NCBI GenBank assembly: GCA_027317185.1 | Contig: DAHVFB010000048.1 | Coordinates: forward strand, 1-27,396 | Length of the DNA: 27,396 nt | Source of the DNA: Deltaproteobacteria bacterium | Lineage (GTDB): Bacteria; Desulfobacterota; Binatia; Binatales; Binataceae | Direction: 5' to 3' | Shown: positions 4,660 to 26,210 of the stretch, in pieces | Numbering within the stretch: the stretch's first letter is position 1 | Layout: every line of letters starts with the position of its first letter | Made by a program: the position numbers and the translations under genes | Notes under the pieces: generated by a model | What the model was told of the DNA's origin: nothing | Databases searched by the model: none | The model's input: the letters and a program-made list of their open reading frames with translations, nothing else

Positions 4660-4761
4660 CGCGAAACCTGCGCAAATCAGCTTAACTATGGACTACCAGC
4701 TTTGCCATCACTGTCGCGCAGCATTCGGGTATTGCCGGTTCCGTGATCGATTTTGTTTGAT

Positions 4762-6150
4762 TTATTTGCCGATGCAGAACTCGCGGAAGATAACATCGAG
4801 CACGTCTTCCGAGTCCACCGCGCCGGTAATCGCCGTCAGCGCCTCGGATGCGAGGGTCACCTCGACCGCGACAATTTCGGGCGGCATGCCGTCGAGCGCC
4901 GCCTGCCGCGCCGATCGCAGCAGTTCGATTGCCCGGGCCAGCGCCTCGCGATGGCGTTCGCGTGAAATCGCCACCGTGTCGGTCAGTCCCTCGCCAGTGG
5001 CCGCTTCAATCTGATGAAGAATCGCATCGCGAAGCTCGTCCACTCCCTGCGCGCGCAGGGCCGAAAACCGAATTATCGGCGCGGTCACGCCGCGATCATT
5101 AAACTGTCTCTCGCTCGCCGAGGGCGGCAGATCCGATTTATTGAGCAGCGCGATACCTGCCCGATTCGCCAGCAGTTCCATCACCCGGAAATCATCCGCT
5201 TGAAGCGCTTCAGAGGAATCGAACACCGCGATCAGCAGGTCGGCGTCGCGGGCGCGTTCGAGCGCGCGCTCGATACCAATCCGCTCGACCTGATCGCCCG
5301 CTTCACGGATCCCGGCCGTGTCCTGCAACACCACCGGGTAACCGCCAAGCTGGAGAGTATCCTCGATCACGTCGCGCGTGGTGCCGGGTATCGGAGTGAC
5401 GATCGCGCGTTCGATACCGAGCATCAGGTTAAGGATGCTCGACTTGCCCACGTTGGGACGCCCGATAATCGCCGCCCGAATGCCCTCGCGGGCGATTCGT
5501 CCGCGATCGAAGGTCGCGTGCAGCGCCGCAACGTCCTCGATCAGCGCTTCAATCTCCGCCGCGATCTGAGCGCGCGAGGGCAGCTTCAGGTCCTCGTCGG
5601 AAAAATCGATCTCGGCTTCCAGATGGGCGCGAATCGCCAGCACCTGGCCGCGCAGACCGTCGACGCGAACAGCCAGCGCACCGTTAAGCTGCCCCAGCGC
5701 CAGCGTCAGCGCCCGCTCGCCGCGCGCCTCGATCAGATCGCGAATCGCTTCGGCCTCAGTCAAATCGATGCGCCCGTTCAAAAATGCCCGCCGGGTGAAT
5801 TCGCCGCGCTCAGCCAGCCGCGCGCCAGCCGCGACCGCCAGTCCGGCGACGCGTCGTATCAGGTAGGCGCCGCCATGGCAGTGCAGCTCCGCAACATCCT
5901 CGCCGGTGAAGCTTTTCGGCTGCGGAAAGAAGACCGCCATTGCGCGATCGATACCCGCGCCGCCGCGCGGATCGCGAATTTCGCCCAGCCGCAGCACGCG
6001 CGCCGCAGCACCATTCGGGATGGCGCCGCCGAGCGGGGTCCAGATCAGCTTGACGATACTGAAGGCCGCGGGCCCCGAGAGCCGCACGATACCGACCGCC
6101 CCGGTTCCGGGCGGCGTTATCGGCGCGACGATAGTATCTTCGAAGTACAT
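4762..6150 (-). CDS. mnmE: tRNA modification GTPase MnmE/TrmE
   Basis: 462 aa. It has a G-domain (GRPNVGKSSILN, DTAGIRE) and the hallmark C-terminal CIGK tetrapeptide. Confidence 0.93.
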   Translation of the reverse strand: MYFEDTIVAPITPPGTGAVGIVRLSGPAAFSIVKLIWTPLGGAIPNGAAARVLRLGEIRDPRGGAGIDRAMAVFFPQPKSFTGEDVAELHCHGGAYLIRRVAGLAVAAGARLAERGEFTRRAFLNGRIDLTEAEAIRDLIEARGERALTLALGQLNGALAVRVDGLRGQVLAIRAHLEAEIDFSDEDLKLPSRAQIAAEIEALIEDVAALHATFDRGRIAREGIRAAIIGRPNVGKSSILNLMLGIERAIVTPIPGTTRDVIEDTLQLGGYPVVLQDTAGIREAGDQVERIGIERALERARDADLLIAVFDSSEALQADDFRVMELLANRAGIALLNKSDLPPSASERQFNDRGVTAPIIRFSALRAQGVDELRDAILHQIEAATGEGLTDTVAISRERHREALARAIELLRSARQAALDGMPPEIVAVEVTLASEALTAITGAVDSEDVLDVIFREFCIGK

Positions 6151-7340: not shown

Positions 7341-8996
7341 TTGGATTCTCGCACATTGATTGTCGTCCTGCTTTCGATCGGCCTCATCTTCGCCTATCAA
7401 GAGTTGGTTCTGAAGCGGCTGTATCCGCCGCACAAACAAGTCGAGCAGGCGCAGAGTATCGCCAGCCCGGAGGGCGCCGGACCGCAATCGGATGCGGCCG
7501 GCGGCGGATCGTCCGCCCAGATTGCCGCCAATTCGATGATCGGCGCCGCGAACCTCGCGCCGCGCACGATCGAGATCGACACCCACCTGTATCAGGCGGT
7601 CCTGACCACCAGGGGCGGACGGTTGCTCAGTCTGCGGCTGAAGGACTTTCGCGAAACCGCCGCGCCGGGCAGTCCCTGGTACGAGATGGTACCGACTGCG
7701 CCCGGCGGCAAGCTGCCGTTGGGATTAGTGGTCAATCGCGCCGGTACGACGCTGACCGATTCCGCGCTCGATTATGCGACCGACGCGCCCGCGCGGCTCG
7801 ATGCCACTGCGGGACACCCGGTAACCATCACCTTCCGCGCGAAAACCCACGATGGCCTCGCAGTCGAGAAATCCCTGATTTTTCGTGATGACAGCTACGC
7901 CTTCGACCTCGATGCCGCGATCACGGGCGAGACCACCGGCCTCACCCAGACCGGCTTCGGCATCAGTCAGCCGCTGACCAAGCATGCCGGCTACGCCGAC
8001 ATCCCGGAGCTGCAGGCCGAGGTTCAGGGTAAGACGCTCACCGAGCGAGAAAAGGCGCTGGAAAAGGGCGCGGCGCCCGCCAGCGGCCAGATCACCTATG
8101 CCGGCTTCGGCGATCGGTACTTCCTCTCCGTTTATCTGCCGATTGCCCCAAACAGCGGCACGCTGCAGATGAGCTATGGCGGCGATGAAGCGCAGGCTCG
8201 AATTCTTTTCGACCGCACGGCCAAAATCAGCACGGCCGTTTACATGGGTCCCAAGAAGCTCGAGATCCTGGAGCAGGTCAATCCGTCGCTGAGCAAGGCC
8301 ATCGATTTCGGCTATCTCGGGATAATCGCGCTGCCGCTGCTGCGTACATTAAAATTATTTTATTATGTCGGCCACAATTACGGGATTGCTATTATCCTGC
8401 TGACTTTGGTGGTGCGGGCGCTTACGCTGCCGATGTCGATCAAAGGGCAGCGCTCGATGATGCGGATGCAGCGGCTACAGCCCCAGGTGGAACGGATTCG
8501 GGAGAAATTCAAGGACGATCAGGAGCGGCTTAATCGCGAAATGGTCGATCTGTACAAACGCAATCACGTTAACCCGCTCGGCGGATGCCTGCCGATGGTG
8601 ATCCAACTACCGATCCTGTATGGGCTGTACGAGGCCTTTCTGAACGCTTTCGAGCTGCGGCAGGCGCCGTTTATCGGATGGATCAGGGATCTTTCGGCGC
8701 CCGATTGTCTAACCATACCGGGGATGCCGGCGCTGCCGTGGACCGCCTGTCACGGCATCCCTGTGCTGGTAATTCTGCTAGCGATAACCTCGTTATCGCA
8801 GCAGTGGCTCTCGCCCAAGCAGCCCGACCCCAATCAGCAGAAAATGATGATGTACATGCCGGTTGCATTCAGTCTAATCTTCATTAATCTGCCAGCCGGG
8901 CTTACGTTGTACTATTTATCGTCAAACGTGCTCGGTATTTTGCAACAGGTTTTTCTAAACTACGAATTTAAACAGTACACCCCCGCGACGACATGA
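7341..8996 (+). CDS. yidC: Membrane protein insertase YidC
   Basis: 551 aa. It has an N-terminal TM anchor, a large periplasmic domain, and the conserved C-terminal TM core (…PLLRTL…GCLPMVIQLPILYGLY…YYLSSNVLGILQQ). Confidence 0.92.
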   Translation: MDSRTLIVVLLSIGLIFAYQELVLKRLYPPHKQVEQAQSIASPEGAGPQSDAAGGGSSAQIAANSMIGAANLAPRTIEIDTHLYQAVLTTRGGRLLSLRLKDFRETAAPGSPWYEMVPTAPGGKLPLGLVVNRAGTTLTDSALDYATDAPARLDATAGHPVTITFRAKTHDGLAVEKSLIFRDDSYAFDLDAAITGETTGLTQTGFGISQPLTKHAGYADIPELQAEVQGKTLTEREKALEKGAAPASGQITYAGFGDRYFLSVYLPIAPNSGTLQMSYGGDEAQARILFDRTAKISTAVYMGPKKLEILEQVNPSLSKAIDFGYLGIIALPLLRTLKLFYYVGHNYGIAIILLTLVVRALTLPMSIKGQRSMMRMQRLQPQVERIREKFKDDQERLNREMVDLYKRNHVNPLGGCLPMVIQLPILYGLYEAFLNAFELRQAPFIGWIRDLSAPDCLTIPGMPALPWTACHGIPVLVILLAITSLSQQWLSPKQPDPNQQKMMMYMPVAFSLIFINLPAGLTLYYLSSNVLGILQQVFLNYEFKQYTPATT

Positions 8997-10117
8997 GTGC
9001 CAGGATTTCGATCGAAAAAACCGCAGCTTCAGTCGAAGACGCCATTCGGCAGGCGCTTGAAGAACTCGGCGCACATGAGGACGATGTCATTATCGAGGTG
9101 CTGAGTACCCCGCGATCCGGGGTGCTGGGGCTTGGCGCGCGACAGGCCAAGGTCCGAGTCACCCGTCGGCCACCCGAGATTGCGCGCAGCGAGGCGCAGT
9201 CGCCACCGCCTGCGCCGCCACCGCAACGCACGCCCGATCAACCACGCCGTCCCTTGCCGCAGCGCCAGGAAACGAGCCGTCAGCCTGAGAATCAATCGCT
9301 TCCGCGTCCCGAAGAACGGCGTCCCGAAGAAAGACGGCCTCCGCGCCAGGAGCATCGGCAGAACCGTTCCGATGATCAGCGGCCTCGCGACGATCAGCGG
9401 CCTCGCGACGAACGGCGGCCTCGCGACGAACGGCGGCCACGTCCCGAGCGTGCGCCGCGAAACGATTCGCCAACGCCATCGCCGGAGCGTCCGCCGCGCG
9501 ATGAGGAACGCGGAAGTGAATCGGGATTGCCCGACAATCGACCTAATCTGGACCGCGCGGCGCAAACCCGTGAAGCGATCGAAGCGCTGACGCGCATCCT
9601 CGATCTGATGGGCGAGCGATGCGTGGTGGCCGAAGGCGACCAGGATCCGGAAAATATTGAACTCGAGATTAAGGGTGATGGCTCCGGGATCCTTATCGGC
9701 CGTCATGGTCAGACGCTGGATGCGCTCGAATACATCATCAACCGGATTCTCGCCCGGCGGGTGAAAGAGGCGCTCAACGTCGCGCTGGACACGGAGTCAT
9801 ATCGCGCCCGCCGCCGTCAGCAGATTCATCGGATGGCGCTTTCGATGGGTGAGCAGGCCAAACGCGAACATGAGACGGTGCACCTCGAGCCGATGCCGCC
9901 GCGTGAGCGCCGAATCGTCCATCTGGCGCTCAAAGACGATCCTTTGATAACCACCCGTTCCGCCGGCGAGGGCTACCTGCGCACGATCGAAATCGTTCCG
10001 GTCGGAGGTGGTGCGCCGCGTGAGGGCCATTCGCGCGATCGGAATCGTGAGCATAACCGCGAACCGGCGATTGGCGAGCAGGGCGGCTTCAAACACGGCC
10101 AGAAACGGATCATCTAA
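8993..10117 (+). CDS. khpB: Jag/KhpB RNA-binding protein (Jag_N + KH + R3H) with a ~130-aa Arg/Pro/Glu/Asp-rich repetitive insert
   Basis: The Jag N-domain is MSARISIEKTAASVEDAIRQALEELG. A KH-like region follows (ENIELEIKGDGSGILIGRHGQTLDALEYIINRI), then an R3H region (RRIVHLALKDDPLITTRSAGEGYLRTIEI). Its start overlaps the yidC stop (ATGA). It has the canonical position after yidC. Confidence 0.85.
   Translation: MSARISIEKTAASVEDAIRQALEELGAHEDDVIIEVLSTPRSGVLGLGARQAKVRVTRRPPEIARSEAQSPPPAPPPQRTPDQPRRPLPQRQETSRQPENQSLPRPEERRPEERRPPRQEHRQNRSDDQRPRDDQRPRDERRPRDERRPRPERAPRNDSPTPSPERPPRDEERGSESGLPDNRPNLDRAAQTREAIEALTRILDLMGERCVVAEGDQDPENIELEIKGDGSGILIGRHGQTLDALEYIINRILARRVKEALNVALDTESYRARRRQQIHRMALSMGEQAKREHETVHLEPMPPRERRIVHLALKDDPLITTRSAGEGYLRTIEIVPVGGGAPREGHSRDRNREHNREPAIGEQGGFKHGQKRII
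9374..9445 (+). repeat. Four tandem 18-bp coding repeats (GATCAGCGGCCTCGCGAC x2, GAACGGCGGCCTCGCGAC, degenerate 4th) inside jag/khpB
   Basis: Direct inspection shows they encode DQRPRD-DQRPRD-ERRPRD-ERRPRP. Adjacent 15-bp repeats encode PEERR x2 (9309-9340). Confidence 0.8.
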
Positions 10118-10811: not shown

Positions 10812-12230
<1,419 letters not shown>

Positions 12231-12441: not shown

Positions 12442-13338
12442 GTGATCACCAACATCGCGGGCATCGACGAGGCCGCCGAGCGTTTCCAGATCAACGCCTA
12501 CCTGTTCGCCGATTGGCGCGACCCGCGCCTGCAACATCCGCCGAAACCCGGCGGACTGCCGGTCAGCTACCGGCCCGGCGAGATCTGGCATCCGCAGGCC
12601 GAGTTCGTCAACGCGGTCAGGCCGCACGAACGCCAGGATATCTCGCTCGCGGCCGAGGCCGACGGCACGGTGCATTACGTGGAACGGCTGGACGCCGAAC
12701 TATCATCGAAATTTTTTCTGCGCAGCTTTCCCTTCGATAGCCAGACTTTGCAGATCGTTATTCATCCGTTCGCCAGCGAGGCCCGCTATGTGACCTACAC
12801 CGTCGATCGCGCGCGCAGCTCGACCGCCTCGGAATTCAATGCCTACAGCTCGCTGGCCGATTGGAAGGTGACCGGAATGACGCCGGTCGAATCGATTGTG
12901 CGCTCGGTAAACGGCGGCGAAGTCTCCGAGGTCCGCTTCGAAATCAAGGCTGTGCGCCAGTATGAATTTTATATCTGGAAAATTTTCCTGCCGCTGTTTC
13001 TGATGGTGATGCTGTCGTGGACCGTGTTCTGGATGGACCCGTTCGATTTAAAGAACCAGATTCAGGTCGCGGTGGTGACGCTGCTGACAGTAATCGCCTT
13101 CGCGCTGGCGATTTCTTCCAGCCTGCCCAAGGTTCCATATCTCACGTTCTCCGATGCTTTCTTCCTCACCTGCTACATCTTCGTTTTCATTTCGATTATC
13201 GAGCTGATGACGGTACATGTCACTCATCGCAGGCGCGGCAAGGATTTCGGCCTGCGCATCCGCCGAGTCTCGCGATGGCTGGTGCCGCTCGGTTTCTGCC
13301 TGACGCTGGCGGTCATCGCATTCCGCTTTCTGACCTAA
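12442..13338 (+). CDS. Prokaryotic pentameric ligand-gated ion channel (Cys-loop receptor superfamily; ECD + 4 TM). The ORF shown lacks its signal peptide because of an upstream in-frame TAG, so it is a possible pseudogene
   Basis: The extracellular-domain beta-strands (IALVITNIAGIDEAAERFQINAYLFADWRDPRLQ) resemble the GLIC/ELIC N-terminus. There is a 'Cys-loop' equivalent FPFDSQTLQIVI. M1-M3 run ...YIWKIFLPLFLMVMLSWTVFWMD...VAVVTLLTVIAFAL... There is a short M3-M4 loop and a C-terminal M4. Confidence 0.8.
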   Translation: MITNIAGIDEAAERFQINAYLFADWRDPRLQHPPKPGGLPVSYRPGEIWHPQAEFVNAVRPHERQDISLAAEADGTVHYVERLDAELSSKFFLRSFPFDSQTLQIVIHPFASEARYVTYTVDRARSSTASEFNAYSSLADWKVTGMTPVESIVRSVNGGEVSEVRFEIKAVRQYEFYIWKIFLPLFLMVMLSWTVFWMDPFDLKNQIQVAVVTLLTVIAFALAISSSLPKVPYLTFSDAFFLTCYIFVFISIIELMTVHVTHRRRGKDFGLRIRRVSRWLVPLGFCLTLAVIAFRFLT

Positions 13339-16747: not shown

Positions 16748-19075
16748 ATGCGTAATCGCGACCTGAGAGCGTTGGAATTCGACAAAGTGCTTGAAATCGC
16801 CGAGGGCTTCGCGGTCTCGGCACCGGGCCGCGATGCGGTCCGCGATCTCGCGCCATCGCGCGACCGCGATCAGGTGCGCGAACGGCTGCGCACCGCGGCC
16901 GAGTTGGCCGAATTGCGATTGCATTCTGGATCCCTTCCGGTCGGCGAGTTCACCGACCAGCGCGGCTTGATTCTGGCGGCCGCGCGCGAGGGCGCCGTAC
17001 TCGATGGAGCCTCGCTGGTCCGCATCCGCGATTTCGTGCTCGCCGCGCGGCATCTGTCGGCCTTCATGCGATCGCGGGTCGAACCATATCCCCATCTCAG
17101 CACAATCGCTGCGATGCTGGTGGCGCCGAAGGAGCTCGCCGATGCGATGCTGTCGGCGCTGGCCGACGACGGCGGTCTGCTCGACGATGCCAGCCCTGAA
17201 CTGCACCGGCTGCGAAAGCGCCTGCGCGAGGGCCGCCTCGACCTCGAGACCCGGCTTTTCCGGGCGCTGAACGCGCCGGGAATGGAGCCGTTCATCTCCG
17301 ATTCCGTCGTCACTTTGCGCAATCGCCGCTTCGTCGTCCCGCTCAAGCTCAATTATGCCGACAAGCTGGAGGGCATCGTTCAGGATCGATCGGTCTCGGG
17401 CGAAACCCTGTTCGTGGAGCCGCTGTGGGCGATCGAACTTAACAACCGGCTGATGATGTTCGAGCGCGAGGCCGAGGCCGAGGAACGGCGCATCCTGATG
17501 GCGCTGAGCGCGATGGTGCGCGGTTATGCGCGCGAGTTGCGGATGACCTTCGATGCGATGGTGCGCCTGGACATGCTCAATGCCTGCGCAGTTTTCGCCG
17601 AGCGTTTCGGCGGTATCGAGCCCGAGCTTACCGAATGGGGCCTGGAGCTGACGGCGGCGCGCCATCCGATGCTGGTGGCGAGCGGGCGTGAAGTGGTGCC
17701 GATCGACATCGCGATCGGCGCTGATCAGCACGGCATCGTCATTTCCGGTCCCAACACCGGCGGTAAAACGGTGGCGCTCAAGACCGTCGGACTGCTCTCG
17801 ATGATGGCGCAGGCGGGGCTACTGATACCCGCGCAACGCGCGCGGCTGCCGGTCTTCAGCTCGTGTTTTGTCGATATCGGCGACGAGCAATCGATCGAAC
17901 GGAACCTTTCGAGCTTCGCCGCCCATATCATGAACCTGCGCGAAATTGTCGATTCTTTCGCCGAACCGGCGCTCGTGATCCTCGATGAACCGGGTGCCGG
18001 CACCGACCCCACCGAAGGGGCCGCGCTCGCGATCGGGATGATGAACTATTTCAAGGCCCGCAAGTGCCTGCTCGGGATCGCGACGCATTCAAACGCGGTC
18101 AAGCTGCACGCTTATTCGAGCGGCGGTTTCGAGGCGGCGGCGGTCGATTTCGATCCCGAACGGCTGCTGCCGCGGTATCGGTTGAAACCGCATACCATTG
18201 GCGAGAGCTACGGCCTGGCGGTGGCGCGCCGGCTGGGCTTGCCCGACGAGATCGTCAGTGCCGCCGAAGCTGCCCGTGGCGAGGCGAATATCCAGCTCGA
18301 TCGCGTTCTTCGTCAGCTCGAACAGGAACGCGACGCACTGCACGCCGCGCGGGAGCGGCTGACAGAACGCGCGCGCGAACTCGATATGCAGCAGCAGCGC
18401 AATCTCGAACAAGCCGCGCACGAACGCCGTAAGTACACGGCCGAGACAGAACGATTGCGCGCCGAAGCGCAGAATTTAATCGCGGAGCTGCGCCGTCAAA
18501 GCGCCGATCTGGCAAAAGAAATCCGCGCGGGAACAAAGCCGCGATCGAGCATGACCGCGATGCTCAACCAGGCCGTGGAACGGATGGCCGGTCTGACGCC
18601 GGAGGGCGCGGAAGCTGACCCCGGATCGCAGACGCCGTTTAAGGTCGGCGACCAGGTCGAGGTCGGCGATCTGCGGGGCGAACTGCTGCAACTGGATCAG
18701 AATCGCGCGGTGATCGGACGCGGCGGCCTGCGCATCGAAGTCGCCCTCGACCGGCTGCGGCATGCGCGCACGCCACAACCCTCAAGATCTTCCCGGCGGC
18801 CGCAGGTCAGTGTCGCGGCTGCCGCCAGCGGCGACGCCGAGATCAATTTGATTGGAATGCGAACCGCCGAGGCGCTCCACAGGCTCGAAGAGTTCCTCGA
18901 TCAGGCCTACCTGACCAACCGCGCCGAAGTGCGTATCGTACATGGAATCGGTTCGGGCGCGCTGCGCAAAGCGATCCACGAATACCTGGGCAACTCGGCG
19001 TACTCAGCTTCGTTCCGCGAAGCCGAGCCGCATCAGGGAGGCGCCGGCGCGACGGTCGTGACACTCAGCCTGTGA
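16748..19075 (+). CDS. mutS2: Endonuclease MutS2 (MutS domain III/ATPase + C-terminal Smr)
   Basis: 775 aa with Walker A GPNTGGKTVALKTVGL and Walker B ILDEPGAGTDPTEG. The C-terminal Smr domain is INLIGMRTAEALHRLEEFLDQA...VRIVHGIGSGALRKAIHEYL. Confidence 0.9.
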   Translation: MRNRDLRALEFDKVLEIAEGFAVSAPGRDAVRDLAPSRDRDQVRERLRTAAELAELRLHSGSLPVGEFTDQRGLILAAAREGAVLDGASLVRIRDFVLAARHLSAFMRSRVEPYPHLSTIAAMLVAPKELADAMLSALADDGGLLDDASPELHRLRKRLREGRLDLETRLFRALNAPGMEPFISDSVVTLRNRRFVVPLKLNYADKLEGIVQDRSVSGETLFVEPLWAIELNNRLMMFEREAEAEERRILMALSAMVRGYARELRMTFDAMVRLDMLNACAVFAERFGGIEPELTEWGLELTAARHPMLVASGREVVPIDIAIGADQHGIVISGPNTGGKTVALKTVGLLSMMAQAGLLIPAQRARLPVFSSCFVDIGDEQSIERNLSSFAAHIMNLREIVDSFAEPALVILDEPGAGTDPTEGAALAIGMMNYFKARKCLLGIATHSNAVKLHAYSSGGFEAAAVDFDPERLLPRYRLKPHTIGESYGLAVARRLGLPDEIVSAAEAARGEANIQLDRVLRQLEQERDALHAARERLTERARELDMQQQRNLEQAAHERRKYTAETERLRAEAQNLIAELRRQSADLAKEIRAGTKPRSSMTAMLNQAVERMAGLTPEGAEADPGSQTPFKVGDQVEVGDLRGELLQLDQNRAVIGRGGLRIEVALDRLRHARTPQPSRSSRRPQVSVAAAASGDAEINLIGMRTAEALHRLEEFLDQAYLTNRAEVRIVHGIGSGALRKAIHEYLGNSAYSASFREAEPHQGGAGATVVTLSL

Positions 19076-22320: not shown

Positions 22321-23085
22321 ATGGCGCGCAAAGGAAAATCCCGGAGCCAGCCCCCCAAGCCGGAATCCTCCAAGCCGGTGTTTCCTTCGCCGTTCAAGGA
22401 TCTCCGTAAAATGATCGGCGACGGGCGCCCAAACCCCGCACCGGCCACGACAGCGATCAAACTACCCGCCGCGCCATCCCAAGCAGTTTCACCTGCTCCG
22501 CAAATCAACGACGAGGCTCTGTTTCGCGAGGCGATGGACGGCGCGCGGCCGTTGTCCGGTCCGCGCAAGGCCCGCGTGGCGATTGAGCCGCGCGTAGCGG
22601 TCAACATCGTGAGCGAAGAATCGGAGGTGCTGGCGGAGCTTTATGACCTGGTATCCGGCCAGGGGCCGTTCGAACTTACCGAAACCGAGGAATACGTCGA
22701 GGGCGCGCGGAACGGAATCGATCCGCGGGTGGTGAGCCGCCTGCGGCGCGGCGAGTTCGCGCTGCAAGGGCATATCGATCTGCACGGGATGGTACGCGAA
22801 GAAGCCAAGCGCGCGCTGACGGATTTCATCATCGATTCGCTGCACAAGGGCCGCCGCGCAATCCTGGTGGTGCATGGTCGCGGCCACGGATCGCCGGGCG
22901 GGCGTCCGATCCTGAAACATCTTACCGCACGTTGGCTCTCGCACGGGGTGATCGGCGGCTACGTGCTGGCGTTTACCTCGGCGCGGCCCAACGACGGCGG
23001 CGCGGGCGCGATGTACGTGCTGCTGCGGCGCGAGCGCCGCCGCGGCCAGTTCGAGGTGCTCAACGGCACCCACGGGCGCGACTGA
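22321..23085 (+). CDS. Smr-domain protein (SmrB/YfcN-like) with a disordered Pro/Ala-rich N-terminal region
   Basis: The C-terminal Smr domain is HIDLHGMVREEAKRALTDFIIDSLHKGRRAILVVHGRGHGS...GRPILKHLTARWL. Confidence 0.75.
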   Translation: MARKGKSRSQPPKPESSKPVFPSPFKDLRKMIGDGRPNPAPATTAIKLPAAPSQAVSPAPQINDEALFREAMDGARPLSGPRKARVAIEPRVAVNIVSEESEVLAELYDLVSGQGPFELTETEEYVEGARNGIDPRVVSRLRRGEFALQGHIDLHGMVREEAKRALTDFIIDSLHKGRRAILVVHGRGHGSPGGRPILKHLTARWLSHGVIGGYVLAFTSARPNDGGAGAMYVLLRRERRRGQFEVLNGTHGRD

Positions 23086-23170
23086 GCGTTACCGGATACT
23101 TCTCCGACTGAGACATGCTAGATCGTGAGCGGAACCGGCAGGCAGCCGATCGAGCTTTGGGAGGGGAACA

Positions 23171-24349
23171 ATGGCGTCGATTAAACGACTGGTCAAATTA
23201 AACGGCGGTTCGGGAACACGGGATGCAGATCCAGCAAAGATCAAGCTTTTTGGCGCCCTGAAATTAGTCGTAATCCTCGGCATCGGCATAATGCTGATGA
23301 TGATCCTGACCACCCGGGCGTGCGACCTGATCGATTCGCAGAGCCGTTTCGGCATCGCCTCGGGCGTGGTGCTGTTGTCGCTCGCCTTCGGCATACTGGC
23401 CGCGCTGGTGCTCAAAGGCATCCAGTTATCGATCAAAACCATGAAGCGGCTCGGGATGATGGCGATCGCGGTCGTGATCCTGGCTGCCGTCAACGGCTGT
23501 AAATATGTCCCGCCCGGCTATGTCGGAATCAAAGTCGATTTGTATGGACCGCAACGCGGCGTACAGGATCTGCCGATCGTGACCGGACGGATTCTCTATA
23601 ATCCCTGGACCGAGCAGATTTATGAGTTTCCCACCTTCATGCAGTACAACATCTGGACGGTAAGCCCGAACGAGGGCCGCGGATTGGATGAAAGCCTCAC
23701 CTTCGTCACCAAGGATCGAATCCAGGTTAACGTCGATGTCAGCGTCGCGTATCAATTCATGCCCGATAAGGTGGCTCAGCTTTTCATCATCTTCCGCCAG
23801 CCACCCGAAGTGATCGCGGACACCTATATTCGATCCCGGGTGCGCGATGCGTTTACCCGCGATGGGGCTACGCTCAATGCGATGGACGTGCTGGGGGCCG
23901 GGATTTCGCAGCTCGACGCCGACGTGAAGAAAACGGTGGACGCCGAGATGGCGCCGCTTGGAATCCGTTTCGATTACATTTCAATCATCAACAAGCCCCG
24001 CATTCCCCCGCAAATTCAGGAGGCGATCGAGCAGGCGCTGGAGGCTACGCAGCGCGCTCAGACCGCACAAAATCAAGTGGCCGTAGCCGAGGCCGAGGCC
24101 CGTCAGAAGGTCGCTGTAGCGCAGGGAAACGCCAACGCGTTACGGACCGAGGCGCAGGGCCGCGCCGACGCGCTGCTGATGGAGAAAGAGGCTGAGGCCA
24201 AAGCCAACCAGCTAATCGCAGCCAGCATGACGCCACAGCTCATCCAGTACATGGCGATTCAGCGCTGGAAAGGCGAGGTTCCGACGTGGCAGACCGCTGG
24301 CGGCCAGGCCTCGATTCCGTTCGTCTCGATGCAGCCCCCGACGCGCTGA
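23171..24349 (+). CDS. SPFH/band-7 (stomatin/prohibitin/HflKC-like) membrane protein (start uncertain; possible alternative start at MKRLGMMAIAVVILAAVNGC ~23441)
   Basis: The SPFH core is ...GIKVDLYGPQRGVQDLPIVTGRILYNPWTEQIYEF...VNVDVSVAYQ... A coiled-coil Ala/Gln/Glu-rich C-terminus follows (QAIEQALEATQRAQTAQNQVAVAEAEARQKVAVAQGNANALRTEAQ). 2-3 N-terminal hydrophobic segments are present. Confidence 0.8.
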   Translation: MASIKRLVKLNGGSGTRDADPAKIKLFGALKLVVILGIGIMLMMILTTRACDLIDSQSRFGIASGVVLLSLAFGILAALVLKGIQLSIKTMKRLGMMAIAVVILAAVNGCKYVPPGYVGIKVDLYGPQRGVQDLPIVTGRILYNPWTEQIYEFPTFMQYNIWTVSPNEGRGLDESLTFVTKDRIQVNVDVSVAYQFMPDKVAQLFIIFRQPPEVIADTYIRSRVRDAFTRDGATLNAMDVLGAGISQLDADVKKTVDAEMAPLGIRFDYISIINKPRIPPQIQEAIEQALEATQRAQTAQNQVAVAEAEARQKVAVAQGNANALRTEAQGRADALLMEKEAEAKANQLIAASMTPQLIQYMAIQRWKGEVPTWQTAGGQASIPFVSMQPPTR

Positions 24350-24379
24350 TTGGCGGTAAAAAAACGGGGGCGGGCATCA
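24283..24379 (+). repeat. Left copy of a 97-bp imperfect direct repeat (94/97 identical to 25740..25836). It covers the SPFH 3' end and stop plus an A7 run and half of a hairpin
   Basis: Direct alignment gives GACGTGGCAGACCGCTGGCGG...GATTCCGTTCGTCTCGATGCAGCCCCCGACGCGCTGATTGGCGGTAAAAAAACGGGGGCGGGCATCA, with three mismatches clustered at repeat positions 23-29. Confidence 0.9.
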
Positions 24380-25739
24380 GACAAGCTGCGGCGGCGCGAG
24401 CGCCGCGGCAACGCCACCACCGACGCGACTGAAACGTTACAGGACATGCCGATGCTCCTGCCTCTTTACTGCGTCCGACCTCGACCCCCCGGTGTGAGAC
24501 AATGGGTGGACAATACATCGACTTCGGTGCAACAATAGGCACATGAAGTCGCGTCAATTTGGCCCTATTGACCTGCGTAAGTGGATTATCCAATCTATAC
24601 GAGCTGGTCAACTTAGAATAGTTTCAAGCGCCGCAGCTCAGTTTGGAATTTCCCGTCAAACCGTCCACCGTGAAATTCAGGAGATGATTCGGCAAGGTTT
24701 GCTGACGTCTGCCGGAAATACTCGCGCGCGGCAATATCAGTTGCCAATTATCAACCAATTTGCTGTCGACATGGCGGTCACACCGAATTTGGAAGAAGAC
24801 CTGATCTGGCGAAAACATATTGAACCAATATTTGCTGATTTGCCGCCCAACGTGCAGTTAATCGGCCAACATGGATTTACCGAAATGCTAAACAATGTGA
24901 TCGATCATTCGGGGTCCGTGATAGTTCATCTTTTGGCGCTACGCACTGCCGCGAACGTTTCGATGATGGTATCCGACGAGGGGATCGGCATTTTCAAGAA
25001 AATTTATATGGAGCGGTCGCTCGAGGATCCGCGTCACGCGATTCTGGAGCTTTCCAAAGGCCGGTTAACCACTGATCCGGACAGGCACACGGGAGAGGGA
25101 ATATTCTTCACGTCCCGTATATTCGATCGATTCGCAATTTTGTCCGGGAACCTATCGTTAACGTGCACGCCCGAACAGGGAGATTGGCTGTTTGATTTGG
25201 CCGACTGGGGAGTCAAGGTTGACGAACTGCCGTCCGGTATGCCCGGAACGCAAGTGCTAATGGAGATTAGTGCTTTCAGTGAACGTTCGCTTAAACAAGT
25301 GACGGATGAATTTGCGGGCGAAGATCAAGATTATTCGTTTTCAAAAACTCAGGTGCCGGTGCGGCTCGCTCGATATGGAGCAGAACAACTCGTTTCGAGA
25401 TCGCAAGCCAAAAGATTGCTAACGCGCGTAACCATCTTTAAAGAGGTAATTTTGGATTTTGAAGGGGTCGAAACGATCGGGCAGGCCTTTGCTGATGAGA
25501 TTTTCAGGGTCTTTAAAAAGGACCATCCAGGTACCCATCTGACCGTCTCAAGAGCGAACTCTCAGGTCGCGGCCATGATTAAACATGTTCAGCACAGTTC
25601 CGAATCCCACTTCCCCGCCGTTTAGCCTCTCGGAGAATCTTCAATTCGCGCTAACGAAGGGCGACCGCCGGGGATGTGAATGATGAACCCGTGCCGACGT
25701 ATATCGTATAGCCAAAGCGGAACAGTGGAGGGCGGTTAC
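24380..25739 (+). mobile_element. Candidate ~1.36-kb low-GC insertion/islet bounded by the 97-bp direct repeats, carrying one gene and no recognisable recombinase
   Basis: GC drops visibly (to roughly 48-52%) relative to flanks of ~62-65%. The repeat structure duplicates the target sequence. The element interrupts the SPFH-stop/atpE-terminator junction. Confidence 0.45.
24543..25625 (+). CDS. Three-domain protein: N-terminal winged-HTH, central GHKL (HATPase_c; RsbW/SpoIIAB-like Ser-kinase/ATPase) domain, C-terminal DUF4325 (STAS-like) domain
   Basis: The HTH is WIIQSIRAGQLRIVSSAAAQFGISRQTVHREIQEMIRQGLL. The GHKL N-box is TEMLNNVIDHS, the G1 box SDEGIGIF and the G2-like box TGEGIFFTS. The C-terminal ~90 aa (…AKRLLTRVTIFKEVILDFEGVETIGQAFADEIFRVF…) matches the DUF4325/STAS-like family as remembered. 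The ORF is AT-rich relative to the genome. Confidence 0.65.
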   Translation: MKSRQFGPIDLRKWIIQSIRAGQLRIVSSAAAQFGISRQTVHREIQEMIRQGLLTSAGNTRARQYQLPIINQFAVDMAVTPNLEEDLIWRKHIEPIFADLPPNVQLIGQHGFTEMLNNVIDHSGSVIVHLLALRTAANVSMMVSDEGIGIFKKIYMERSLEDPRHAILELSKGRLTTDPDRHTGEGIFFTSRIFDRFAILSGNLSLTCTPEQGDWLFDLADWGVKVDELPSGMPGTQVLMEISAFSERSLKQVTDEFAGEDQDYSFSKTQVPVRLARYGAEQLVSRSQAKRLLTRVTIFKEVILDFEGVETIGQAFADEIFRVFKKDHPGTHLTVSRANSQVAAMIKHVQHSSESHFPAV

Positions 25740-25836
25740 GACGTGGCAGACCGCTGGCGGCTAGGGCCCGATTCCGTTCGTCTCGATGCAGCCCCCGACG
25801 CGCTGATTGGCGGTAAAAAAACGGGGGCGGGCATCA
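25740..25836 (+). repeat. Right copy of the 97-bp direct repeat. Here the sequence continues into the complete terminator hairpin, and an in-frame TAG disrupts the duplicated SPFH C-terminal coding segment
   Basis: See the left copy. In this copy the SPFH-frame has acquired a TAG (GGCGGCTAGGGCCC). Confidence 0.9.
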
Positions 25837-25880: not shown

Positions 25881-26210
25881 TTAGATCTTGGCGTACAGGA
25901 AGAACGCGATCACGAAAGCATACAGGGTCAGCGACTCGACGAACGCCAGGCCGATGATCATCGGGACGAACAACTGGCTGGTGCTGTTAGGATTACGTCC
26001 GATCGACTCCATCGCCGAAGCGGCCAGCTTGCCCTGACCAAGACCGCAGCCGAGCGCCGCGATACCCAGGCCGAGGCCGGTACCAAGGCCGATCAGACCT
26101 CTGCTCATCCCGCCATCGGCAACCGCCGCCGTCTGCGCCATTGCGAATAACGGCGAGCCGAGCATCAGCGCCATCAGGGCGCCCAGGGTCAACCCAATTT
26201 TGCGAACCAT
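25881..26210 (-). CDS. atpE: F0F1 ATP synthase subunit c (AtpE) with a ~30-aa N-terminal signal-peptide-like extension
   Basis: The c-subunit hairpin is GLIGLGTGLGLGIAALGCGLGQGKLAASAMESIGRNPNSTSQLFVPMIIGLAFVESLTLYAFVIAFFLY, with the conserved carboxylate E in TM2. The start is assigned to ATG 26210 (MVRK...) because AAGGAG lies 9 nt upstream. The ORF-track extension to 26258 is rejected. Confidence 0.88.
   Translation of the reverse strand: MVRKIGLTLGALMALMLGSPLFAMAQTAAVADGGMSRGLIGLGTGLGLGIAALGCGLGQGKLAASAMESIGRNPNSTSQLFVPMIIGLAFVESLTLYAFVIAFFLYAKI

Follow-up and report, generated by a model that had tools for sequence, protein, structure and literature searches.

A single-gene, low-GC islet with a one-sided duplication at the atpE terminator hairpin of a Binataceae genome

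We describe a single-gene islet near the right end of a 27,396-nt stretch of DNA from a Deltaproteobacteria bacterium (Binataceae; assembly GCA_027317185.1, contig DAHVFB010000048.1), which is hereafter called the window. The segment at 24380-25733, lying between a gene for an SPFH/Band 7 protein and the terminator of atpE, is an acquired, compositionally foreign insertion with a single gene (here, the cargo), and the direct repeat on its two sides is duplicated sequence of the junction that existed before it. With moderate confidence, we read it as a horizontally acquired gene inserted into a hotspot between a stand-alone Smr-domain gene and atpE, by the recombination or repair functions of the host where a terminator hairpin had broken, with DNA coming from another copy of the locus. 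The features that this reading needs first are given below.

24277-24379, plus strand: B, the left copy of the direct repeat, 103 nt long, made of the final 73 nt of the SPFH gene, a 14-nt spacer including an A-run, the 5' arm of the terminator (24364-24375), and the loop

24380-25733, plus strand: the inserted segment, 1354 bp, guanine-cytosine (GC) content 0.513

25734-25836, plus strand: B', the right copy of the repeat, a relic of the SPFH 3' end with an in-frame TAG at 25762-25764

25849-25821, minus strand: the intact intrinsic terminator of atpE, with a 12-bp stem, -33.6 kcal/mol, z-score -4.5

In a repeat search of the window, B and B' were 99/103 identical (96%), and the pair is the sole dispersed direct repeat of at least 30 nt in the 27.4 kb. 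An earlier note on this DNA, made from the letters alone, had reported 97-nt copies identical at 94/97 positions; these are the core of the 103-nt pair. All four mismatches (24281, 24305, 24309, and 24311) fall in the left 35 nt, so that B and B' are identical over their right-hand 68 nt. At 24304-24312, the SPFH-side variant is CCAGGCCTC and its counterpart is CTAGGGCCC; the bases after the 68-nt block are GACAAGC in the integrated form and would be AGCCCACC in an empty site. The TGA stop codon of the SPFH gene (24347-24349) lies within B. The CAG codon at 24305 in B became TAG in B' (25762-25764), in frame, and B' then continues into the intact atpE terminator. The genuine 3' end on the left, and the degenerate copy with an acquired stop codon on the right, are thus as the earlier note had described them. 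The SPFH-derived repeat does not extend leftward past about 24268, where no similarity was found (z -0.2).

The composition of the insert sets it apart. Its GC content (0.513; 0.491 for the cargo open reading frame (ORF)) compares with 0.603 for the remaining window, and it is the lowest among segments of the same size slid along the window (mean elsewhere 0.605, standard deviation 0.026, minimum 0.525). GC at third codon positions (GC3) is 0.52 in the cargo and 0.66-0.79 across six neighboring genes. The contrast that had been estimated by eye therefore holds when it is computed, and it extends to GC3.

The repeat ends after the ATCA of the loop ATCAA, i.e., the breakpoint is at the 3' edge of the terminator loop in plus-strand terms. 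Folding confirmed what had been noted before, that the repeat boundary falls in the hairpin loop and that the left copy carries half a hairpin: B with the sequence that follows it is unable to form the terminator stem. In a 93%-identical relative (contigs L118 and L119 of JGI sample 3300045140), the loop of the terminator is ATCAG (L119), and the left copy plus its next base is also ATCAG. The joint between the loop and GACAAG shows no homology. Hairpin nucleases of the SbcCD type cut on the 5' side of the loop; on a bottom-strand hairpin, this is presumably the same edge as the breakpoint observed here.

The junction in which this happened can be placed by comparison with relatives. The window is a core, origin-type region in which rsmG, mnmG, mnmE, rnpA, yidC, jag, and genes for fumarase, a carboxyltransferase, MutS2, AsmA, UDG, and Smr are followed by the atp operon. 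The genes around the islet are as follows.

22321..23085, plus strand: the stand-alone Smr-domain gene, the conserved left flank (Pfam Smr, E-value 3.6e-21)

23171..24349, plus strand: the SPFH/Band 7 gene, 392 aa (Pfam Band_7, E-value 1.4e-22), with a native-like GC3 of 0.74

25881..26210, minus strand: atpE, F0 subunit c, the conserved right flank (Pfam ATP-synt_C; synteny in relatives)

A metagenome scan with the Smr protein gave 80 related loci at 45-75% identity, among which 55 had Smr and atpE on one contig. In 48 of these 55, the two genes are convergent with 43-298 nt between them, and a single hairpin is present in each of the 11 gaps read among the 48. The gap is 421-2256 nt in the other 7/55; six of the seven carry one or two unrelated genes, i.e., GST-like (L038, L101), glyoxalase/VOC (L050, L052), or NHL-repeat (L098, L100), and the remaining one (L060, 421-nt gap) has no ORF with family support. 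Neither SPFH nor the cargo was found in the Smr-atpE gap of any of the 55 contigs. The Smr|atpE junction is a small recurrent insertion slot, and its ancestral state is an Smr stop codon, one shared hairpin terminator, and the atpE stop codon within about 50-250 nt. Because Smr and atpE converge on the shared hairpin in 48/55 relatives, both SPFH and the cargo are insertions. The SPFH/atpE junction, taken earlier as the original site, is thus not ancestral: SPFH is itself an earlier insertion at a site that is empty in 48/55. The immediate empty site, Smr-SPFH-terminator-atpE without cargo, was not found among the relatives.

The GST and VOC insertions (L038, L101, L050, L052) were also searched for decayed repeats of the Smr end, and the only match was unconvincing: 17 nt at 88% identity to the last Smr codons (L050 1896-1912), located between the terminator and atpE beyond the VOC gene. 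It may be a faint relic of an older duplication or a chance match. Please note that there are two Smr-domain proteins within 6 kb of the window, MutS2 (MutS_V plus Smr, 16748-19075) and the stand-alone Smr (22321-23085).

The order of events in this lineage is that the SPFH module came first, and the low-GC cargo then joined the Smr-SPFH-terminator arrangement. In L118, UDG, Smr, and SPFH are on one contig; with SPFH already beside Smr there, SPFH arrived before the window lineage and the 93% relative split. L118 stops at the equivalent of window position 24340, and L119, which carries atpB-atpE-terminator, ends at 25827. That both contigs end at the hairpin junction could be due to missing coverage of the GC-rich hairpin, or to a branch in the population, caused by an insert or a polymorphism. 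The closest SPFH homologues (72-77% identical) lie at another locus, behind a zinc-ribbon gene and a small ORF, and were ruled out as a source of the empty site for that reason. A scan of genome contigs with SPFH gave distant Saprospiraceae matches only, and exact-protein look-ups of SPFH, the 313-aa call of the cargo, and AtpE returned no record. The SPFH ORF itself looks like an in-frame fusion, as homologues at 72-78% identity cover just its last 71-78% or so; in the homologue genomes, a separate ORF of 89-91 aa precedes the SPFH gene with an 11-nt overlap (L012, 5742-6011 and 6001-6969; L018, 5736-6011 and 6001-6984).

The left end of the insert holds a second relic, which comes from Smr and not from SPFH.

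23019..23096, plus strand: A, the true Smr 3' end with the stop codon and about 11 nt beyond, the source sequence of A'

24385..24444, plus strand: A', in which the Smr 3' end, its stop codon, and the bases after it recur in decayed form, with a 19-nt deletion and about 15% substitutions

Alignment of A' to A by blastn gave two collinear matches, 24385-24409 (E-value 2e-5) and 24409-24444 (E-value 0.012), which are the best matches of the insert left end in the whole window, and the gapped local alignment of A and A' stands at z = 6.1 above dinucleotide shuffles. The first block of A' also matches the Smr 3' end of many relatives at the equivalent position. After the stop codon, A' keeps CGTTAC, as does the window's own Smr flank and unlike the 93% relative. 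The locus order is then Smr[A] - SPFH[B] - loop | A' - cargo - B' - second hairpin arm - atpE, i.e., the two sequences that bound SPFH recur as relics on the two sides of the cargo. The presence of A' at its left end indicates that the inserted DNA once adjoined an Smr gene, either in a related strain's slot or in a duplicated copy.

One related contig repeats this architecture with different content. L098 has an 85-nt repeat (99% identical; 12103-12187 and 12913-12997) around a 725-bp islet that holds an unrelated 142-aa ORF without a Pfam match and a MITE-like (miniature inverted-repeat transposable element-like) element. Its right copy continues into the intact atpE terminator, and its left copy, which extends 2 nt beyond the loop, is unable to fold. 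The empty site of L098 is seen in L100, which shares the NHL gene and has one repeat copy, followed at once by the hairpin, and no islet; identity between the two is only about 83% there. The breakpoints are thus at +0 nt (window) and +2 nt (L098) from the loop/3'-arm edge; that both are at this edge follows from the left copy and its next base being equal to the full loop ATCAG of L119. Across 876 kb of sequence examined, there are six long direct-repeat pairs at such spacing, and only those of the window and L098 are at a hairpin. Since L098 repeats the architecture with another cargo and homologues of the window's cargo lie elsewhere without repeats, the architecture is a property of the site and not of the cargo. 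A 14-nt identity between the L098 insert left end and atpE (E-value 0.15, no extension) was treated as chance. The MITE-like element, about 100-125 nt with inverted ends TTGTCATTCTGAGCG...CGGGATGACA, occurs in several Binataceae-like contigs: L098 12741-12842 (in the islet), L038 6562-6678, 11614-11737, and 11805-11831, and L108/L109 at about 1126-1251; it is also within the Smr-atpE gap of L038.

We consider that host recombination or repair, rather than an element-encoded recombinase, would have performed the event. No integrase or transposase gene was found in the insert or in the 27-kb window, nor any tRNA gene in the window, and no terminal inverted repeats join the insert ends; the earlier note's statement on the insert in this respect is upheld across all 27 kb. 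One joint is at the 3' edge of the atpE terminator loop and the other is inside the SPFH 3' end, which leaves the 103-bp duplication. The incoming DNA would be from another copy of the locus, i.e., a related strain's or a duplicated one, on the grounds that a relic of the Smr 3' end lies at its left end and a segment of the SPFH 3' end at its right. One joint would have been made through homology in the SPFH 3' end/terminator region, and the other, illegitimate, at the hairpin break. Two routes may lead to this map. In one, break repair or template switching, a broken or stalled loop end would be joined to foreign DNA, and synthesis or pairing would then return to the chromosome through the SPFH 3' homology, with the 68-103 nt left of the break copied twice. 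In the other, a single crossover of a circularized fragment would give the same map. The mismatch pattern in B' (four in the outer 35 nt, none in the inner 68) fits a homeologous joint plus re-copied host sequence, and at 24311 the state in B' is shared with the 93% relative. The description of the segment as a cassette with target-sequence duplication thus stands in one part, that it was acquired and that junction sequence was duplicated; it is not a free-standing cassette, given the Smr relic at its left end, the homologues without repeats, and L098. Among the three mechanisms offered earlier, long-homology recombination fits best.

Several observations weigh against this reading. A plain Campbell crossover with an 11-15% diverged donor should have marked the 68-nt block, which has zero differences. 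The difference in decay between A' (about 15% plus indels) and B' (4%) is marginal (rough Fisher p about 0.02-0.08) and separates no routes. No donor was found, with 67% identity for the best non-self homologue of the cargo, and the immediate empty site is missing among the relatives, as said above. The contigs of the 93% relative end less than 30 nt from the junction on both sides, the assembly graph at k=31 equally fits an empty site plus a 1457-bp circle, and just two hairpin-edge cases are known.

Other explanations have to be set against the same map. The interleaved order A-B-A'-B', with its joint between the loop and the Smr 3' end, is also the outcome of a tandem duplication, and the locus might have duplicated before the cargo came: repair of a loop break on the sister chromosome as template, in which synthesis ran too far and the ends were then joined, would duplicate a 1366-bp unit (Smr 3' end to loop) in tandem, arranged as Smr-SPFH-B-A'-SPFH'-B'. 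Foreign DNA with the cargo would later have replaced the spacer and most of the second SPFH, and A' and B' would be what is left of the second copy. The CGTTAC in A' matches the window's own Smr flank and not that of the 93% relative, the same age of decay for A' and B' cannot be firmly rejected, and a redundant copy would be a harmless target for insertion. We regard this as unlikely, since it requires two separate rare events and three illegitimate joints, there is no SPFH trace between A' and B' (z -0.2), the perfect 68-nt block beside four mismatches in 35 nt needs a later gene conversion, and in L098, where the repeat is likewise at the hairpin edge, no relic of a duplicated unit could be detected. 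A site-specific recombinase or transposase acting in trans, the repeats of about 100 bp being att-type sites or a long target-site duplication by a hairpin-recognizing enzyme, would account for two independent islets at the same hairpin-loop position with similar repeat lengths (85 and 103 nt), and integrative elements often duplicate the 3' end of their target gene. We find this improbable: the 27 kb contain no recombinase gene, the repeats of the window and L098 share the hairpin sequence only, there are no terminal inverted repeats and no attC-like fold, the two cargos and their ends are unrelated, the Smr relic is left unexplained, and cargo homologues occur elsewhere without repeats. Very unlikely indeed is that the cargo is an old resident and its low GC a property of the family. 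In four unrelated lineages, the GC of cargo homologues is 6-14 points lower than that of their flanks, so low GC alone does not date the event; against old residence, the cargo is missing from 55/55 related Smr-atpE loci, and it interrupts the hairpin and is flanked by a near-identical duplication with an SPFH 3' pseudo-copy.

The arrangement could also be an artifact of assembly. An independent Logan unitig (L001) of run SRR12886061 equals window 24350-25798 at 100%, and since it spans them, both insert junctions exist in reads. Its ends (24350 and 25798) are exactly those that k=31 yields for a 68-nt repeat node, and for this reason the k=31 graph cannot separate the tandem form from an empty site plus the circle. 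The tandem form is asserted by one 140-kb contig of a Candidatus Binataceae metagenome-assembled genome (MAG) only (consecutive proteins MBF6568467-71). In a mis-resolved graph or a mixed population, the chromosome would be empty (SPFH-terminator-atpE), and the 1457-bp unit, a separate circle or sub-population, would have been threaded in series by the MAG contig, as the unitig ends would allow. We give this little credence: both junction sequences are present in reads, a 1.46-kb circle with one regulator would lack a replication function, reads of 100-150 nt span the 68-nt repeat, so the MAG assembler probably resolved it, and the NCBI annotation puts four genes consecutively on the 140-kb contig. 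Such a circle would still be the same islet in excised form.

Comparable acquisitions are known from other systems. As in hotspots between core genes generally, conserved flanks (Smr and atpE) hold differing accessory genes or none, and the foreign insert has no mobility gene. What differs is that the slot takes one or two genes, the position is at the terminator-loop edge, and the duplications are 85-103 bp and one-sided. In Escherichia coli, circular DNA with short homology integrated by single crossovers that left duplications of 109-950 bp around the insert; these were more frequent than the classical one-sided-homology events, which usually delete about as much host DNA as is inserted (PMC3240628). 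Homology-facilitated illegitimate recombination and single crossover (PMC3240628; PMC5361080) share with our case one homologous joint, one joint without homology, and a duplicated host flank; they differ in that host DNA was duplicated here and not deleted, and in that the perfect 68-nt block is not expected from a plain single crossover if the donor is diverged. At the orphan immunity genes of type VI secretion systems and the 3' ends of Rhs genes, successive acquisitions leave 3' relics of the earlier gene without an integrase (PMC5361080). Such displacement arrays likewise show 3'-end relics at one locus and no integrase; in the window, the earlier gene (SPFH) is intact, the relics are the Smr and SPFH 3' ends, and the genes have no relation to toxins or immunity.

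The known classes of mobile elements were considered and rejected. An insertion sequence or transposon does not fit, as there is no inverted repeat at the ends and the regulator is the sole ORF with family support; target-site duplications of insertion sequences are fixed at 2-14 bp, and the duplications here are 103 bp and 85 bp (L098). As for an integrative element with a tyrosine or serine recombinase, the insert holds one 360-aa regulator gene and no recombinase; direct repeats duplicating the target 3' end, a trait of such elements, are present (the final 73 nt of SPFH) and alone are not diagnostic. An integron cassette would have at its 3' end an attC site, whose hairpin is imperfect, 57-141 nt long, and provided with R''/R' boxes; in the 120 nt after the cargo, folding was not better than in shuffled sequence (z +1.0 and +1.2 on the two strands), and there is no integrase and no repeat array. 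The integron idea was prompted by arrays of toxin-antitoxin ORFs around one cargo homologue (P0060) and by a repeat in L033, and neither the window nor L033 showed an attC-like fold. That repeat, a 91-nt direct repeat (93%; 4718-4808 and 5897-5987), surrounds a toxin-antitoxin block (DUF2281, BrnT) in a same-strand array of small ORFs beside P0060, in which strains differ by single ORFs. Host recombination, in turn, agrees with the window in that the repeat is of host origin, one joint has no homology, and the incoming DNA carries stretches homologous to the locus. The islet is not a new kind of mobile element and belongs to a known class of recombinase-free acquisitions at core-gene hotspots. 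The unusual part, which rests on two cases, is the recurrent breakpoint at the terminator-hairpin edge with long one-sided duplications.

The gene that was brought in, called a single regulatory/ATPase gene in the earlier note, agrees with this in its fold and motifs, with three recognizable parts.

24507..24536, plus strand: a predicted promoter-like site (TGGACA, 18 nt, TG-AACAAT), a consensus match upstream of the cargo ATG, the number of such sites being not above shuffle expectation

24543..25625, plus strand: the cargo gene, 360 aa, intact, encoding a winged-helix helix-turn-helix (HTH), a SpoIIAB-like GHKL ATP-binding domain, and a STAS-like DUF4325

DUF4325 (PF14213) is well supported at residues 288-342 (E-value 3.4e-15, 55.9 bits versus a gathering cut-off of 23). 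The N-terminal winged helix has weak Pfam HTH matches and weak profile matches to ArsR, MarR, and GntR regulators. Pfam HATPase matches for the central domain are below cut-off (18.8 bits); its profile matches the ATP-binding domains of histidine kinases such as DesK and VraS, and the N, G1 (DxGxG), and G2 box residues E114, N118, D145, G147, G149, G184, and G186 do not vary among 43 homologues. For the AlphaFold model, the mean predicted local distance difference test score is 84.8, and the top PDB matches of the model are SpoIIAB structures with target-normalized template-modeling scores of 0.70-0.73. The cargo thus resembles the SpoIIAB/RsbW and SpoIIAA/RsbV pairs in its SpoIIAB-like central domain, N/G1/G2 motifs, and STAS-like C terminus; in contrast to them, it is one fused chain with an N-terminal winged helix, and there is no sigma factor gene beside it. 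Alignment by eye with the phospho-serine motif of SpoIIAA ("DSSG") puts a variable residue at the position of the serine (homologue consensus "GVExIGQAF"), and because this residue is not conserved, the likeness to partner switching stays an analogy and not a membership. By analogy with these proteins, the cargo is most plausibly an ATP-dependent, self-contained one-protein switch controlling transcription.

The cargo family is large and essentially unstudied, with at least 7990 matches in many phyla. Homologues are found among toxin-antitoxin pairs and a type I restriction gene. No PADLOC defense model matched, except for weak matches of the HTH region to CARF-linked models at E-values around 3e-3, and PHROGs gave only an unannotated family at 1.5e-5; the assignment to a defense system was dropped. 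At ten other loci of the family, no flanking repeats bracketing the gene were found. Another Binataceae MAG (GCA_015470965.1; L009, 2793-3902) has a 64%-identical homologue in a different locus, of which an identical copy is in L010 from the window's own run (SRR12886061). This homologue is itself a single-gene low-GC islet (0.52 versus 0.66), located between the genes of a CxxCxxCC protein and an acyl-CoA dehydrogenase, with no flanking repeat.

Two more features of the window are recorded here. A pentameric ligand-gated ion-channel homologue (Pfam Neur_chan_LBD and Neur_chan_memb) is encoded at 12442-13338, in the second-lowest-GC stretch (0.51-0.53, about 12.7-14.0 kb); it may be acquired, and no long flanking repeat was found around it. 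Within the jag/KhpB-like gene (8993-10117), an 18-nt unit, CGACGATCAGCGGCCTCG, occurs in about five head-to-tail copies at 9352-9441, which would be an in-frame repeat of six residues.

The islet is a clean natural example of a single foreign gene entering an origin-proximal core region (mnmG, mnmE, yidC, and rnpA are nearby) without mobile-element machinery, and the order of events can be reconstructed from the relics in its sequence. The hairpin itself is suggested as the fragile point that opens the slot, because two unrelated insertions share the same terminator-hairpin edge. One may go further and propose that terminator hairpins at convergent junctions are recombinase-independent capture sites, at which a break at the loop 3' edge is repaired from another version of the locus, with one gene per event and a one-sided duplication of about 85-105 bp; we offer this as a tentative generalization that is, for now, rather doubtful. 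If hairpin fragility were general, it would help explain why small accessory genes gather at convergent terminators, and if the proposal is true, single accessory genes, including members of the widespread wHTH-GHKL-STAS (wHTH, winged-helix HTH) family, would have in hairpin capture a general way into core regions that is directed by structure. For this very large uncharacterized family, the cargo adds a well-defined example, and its fused architecture suggests a one-protein switch that can be tested.

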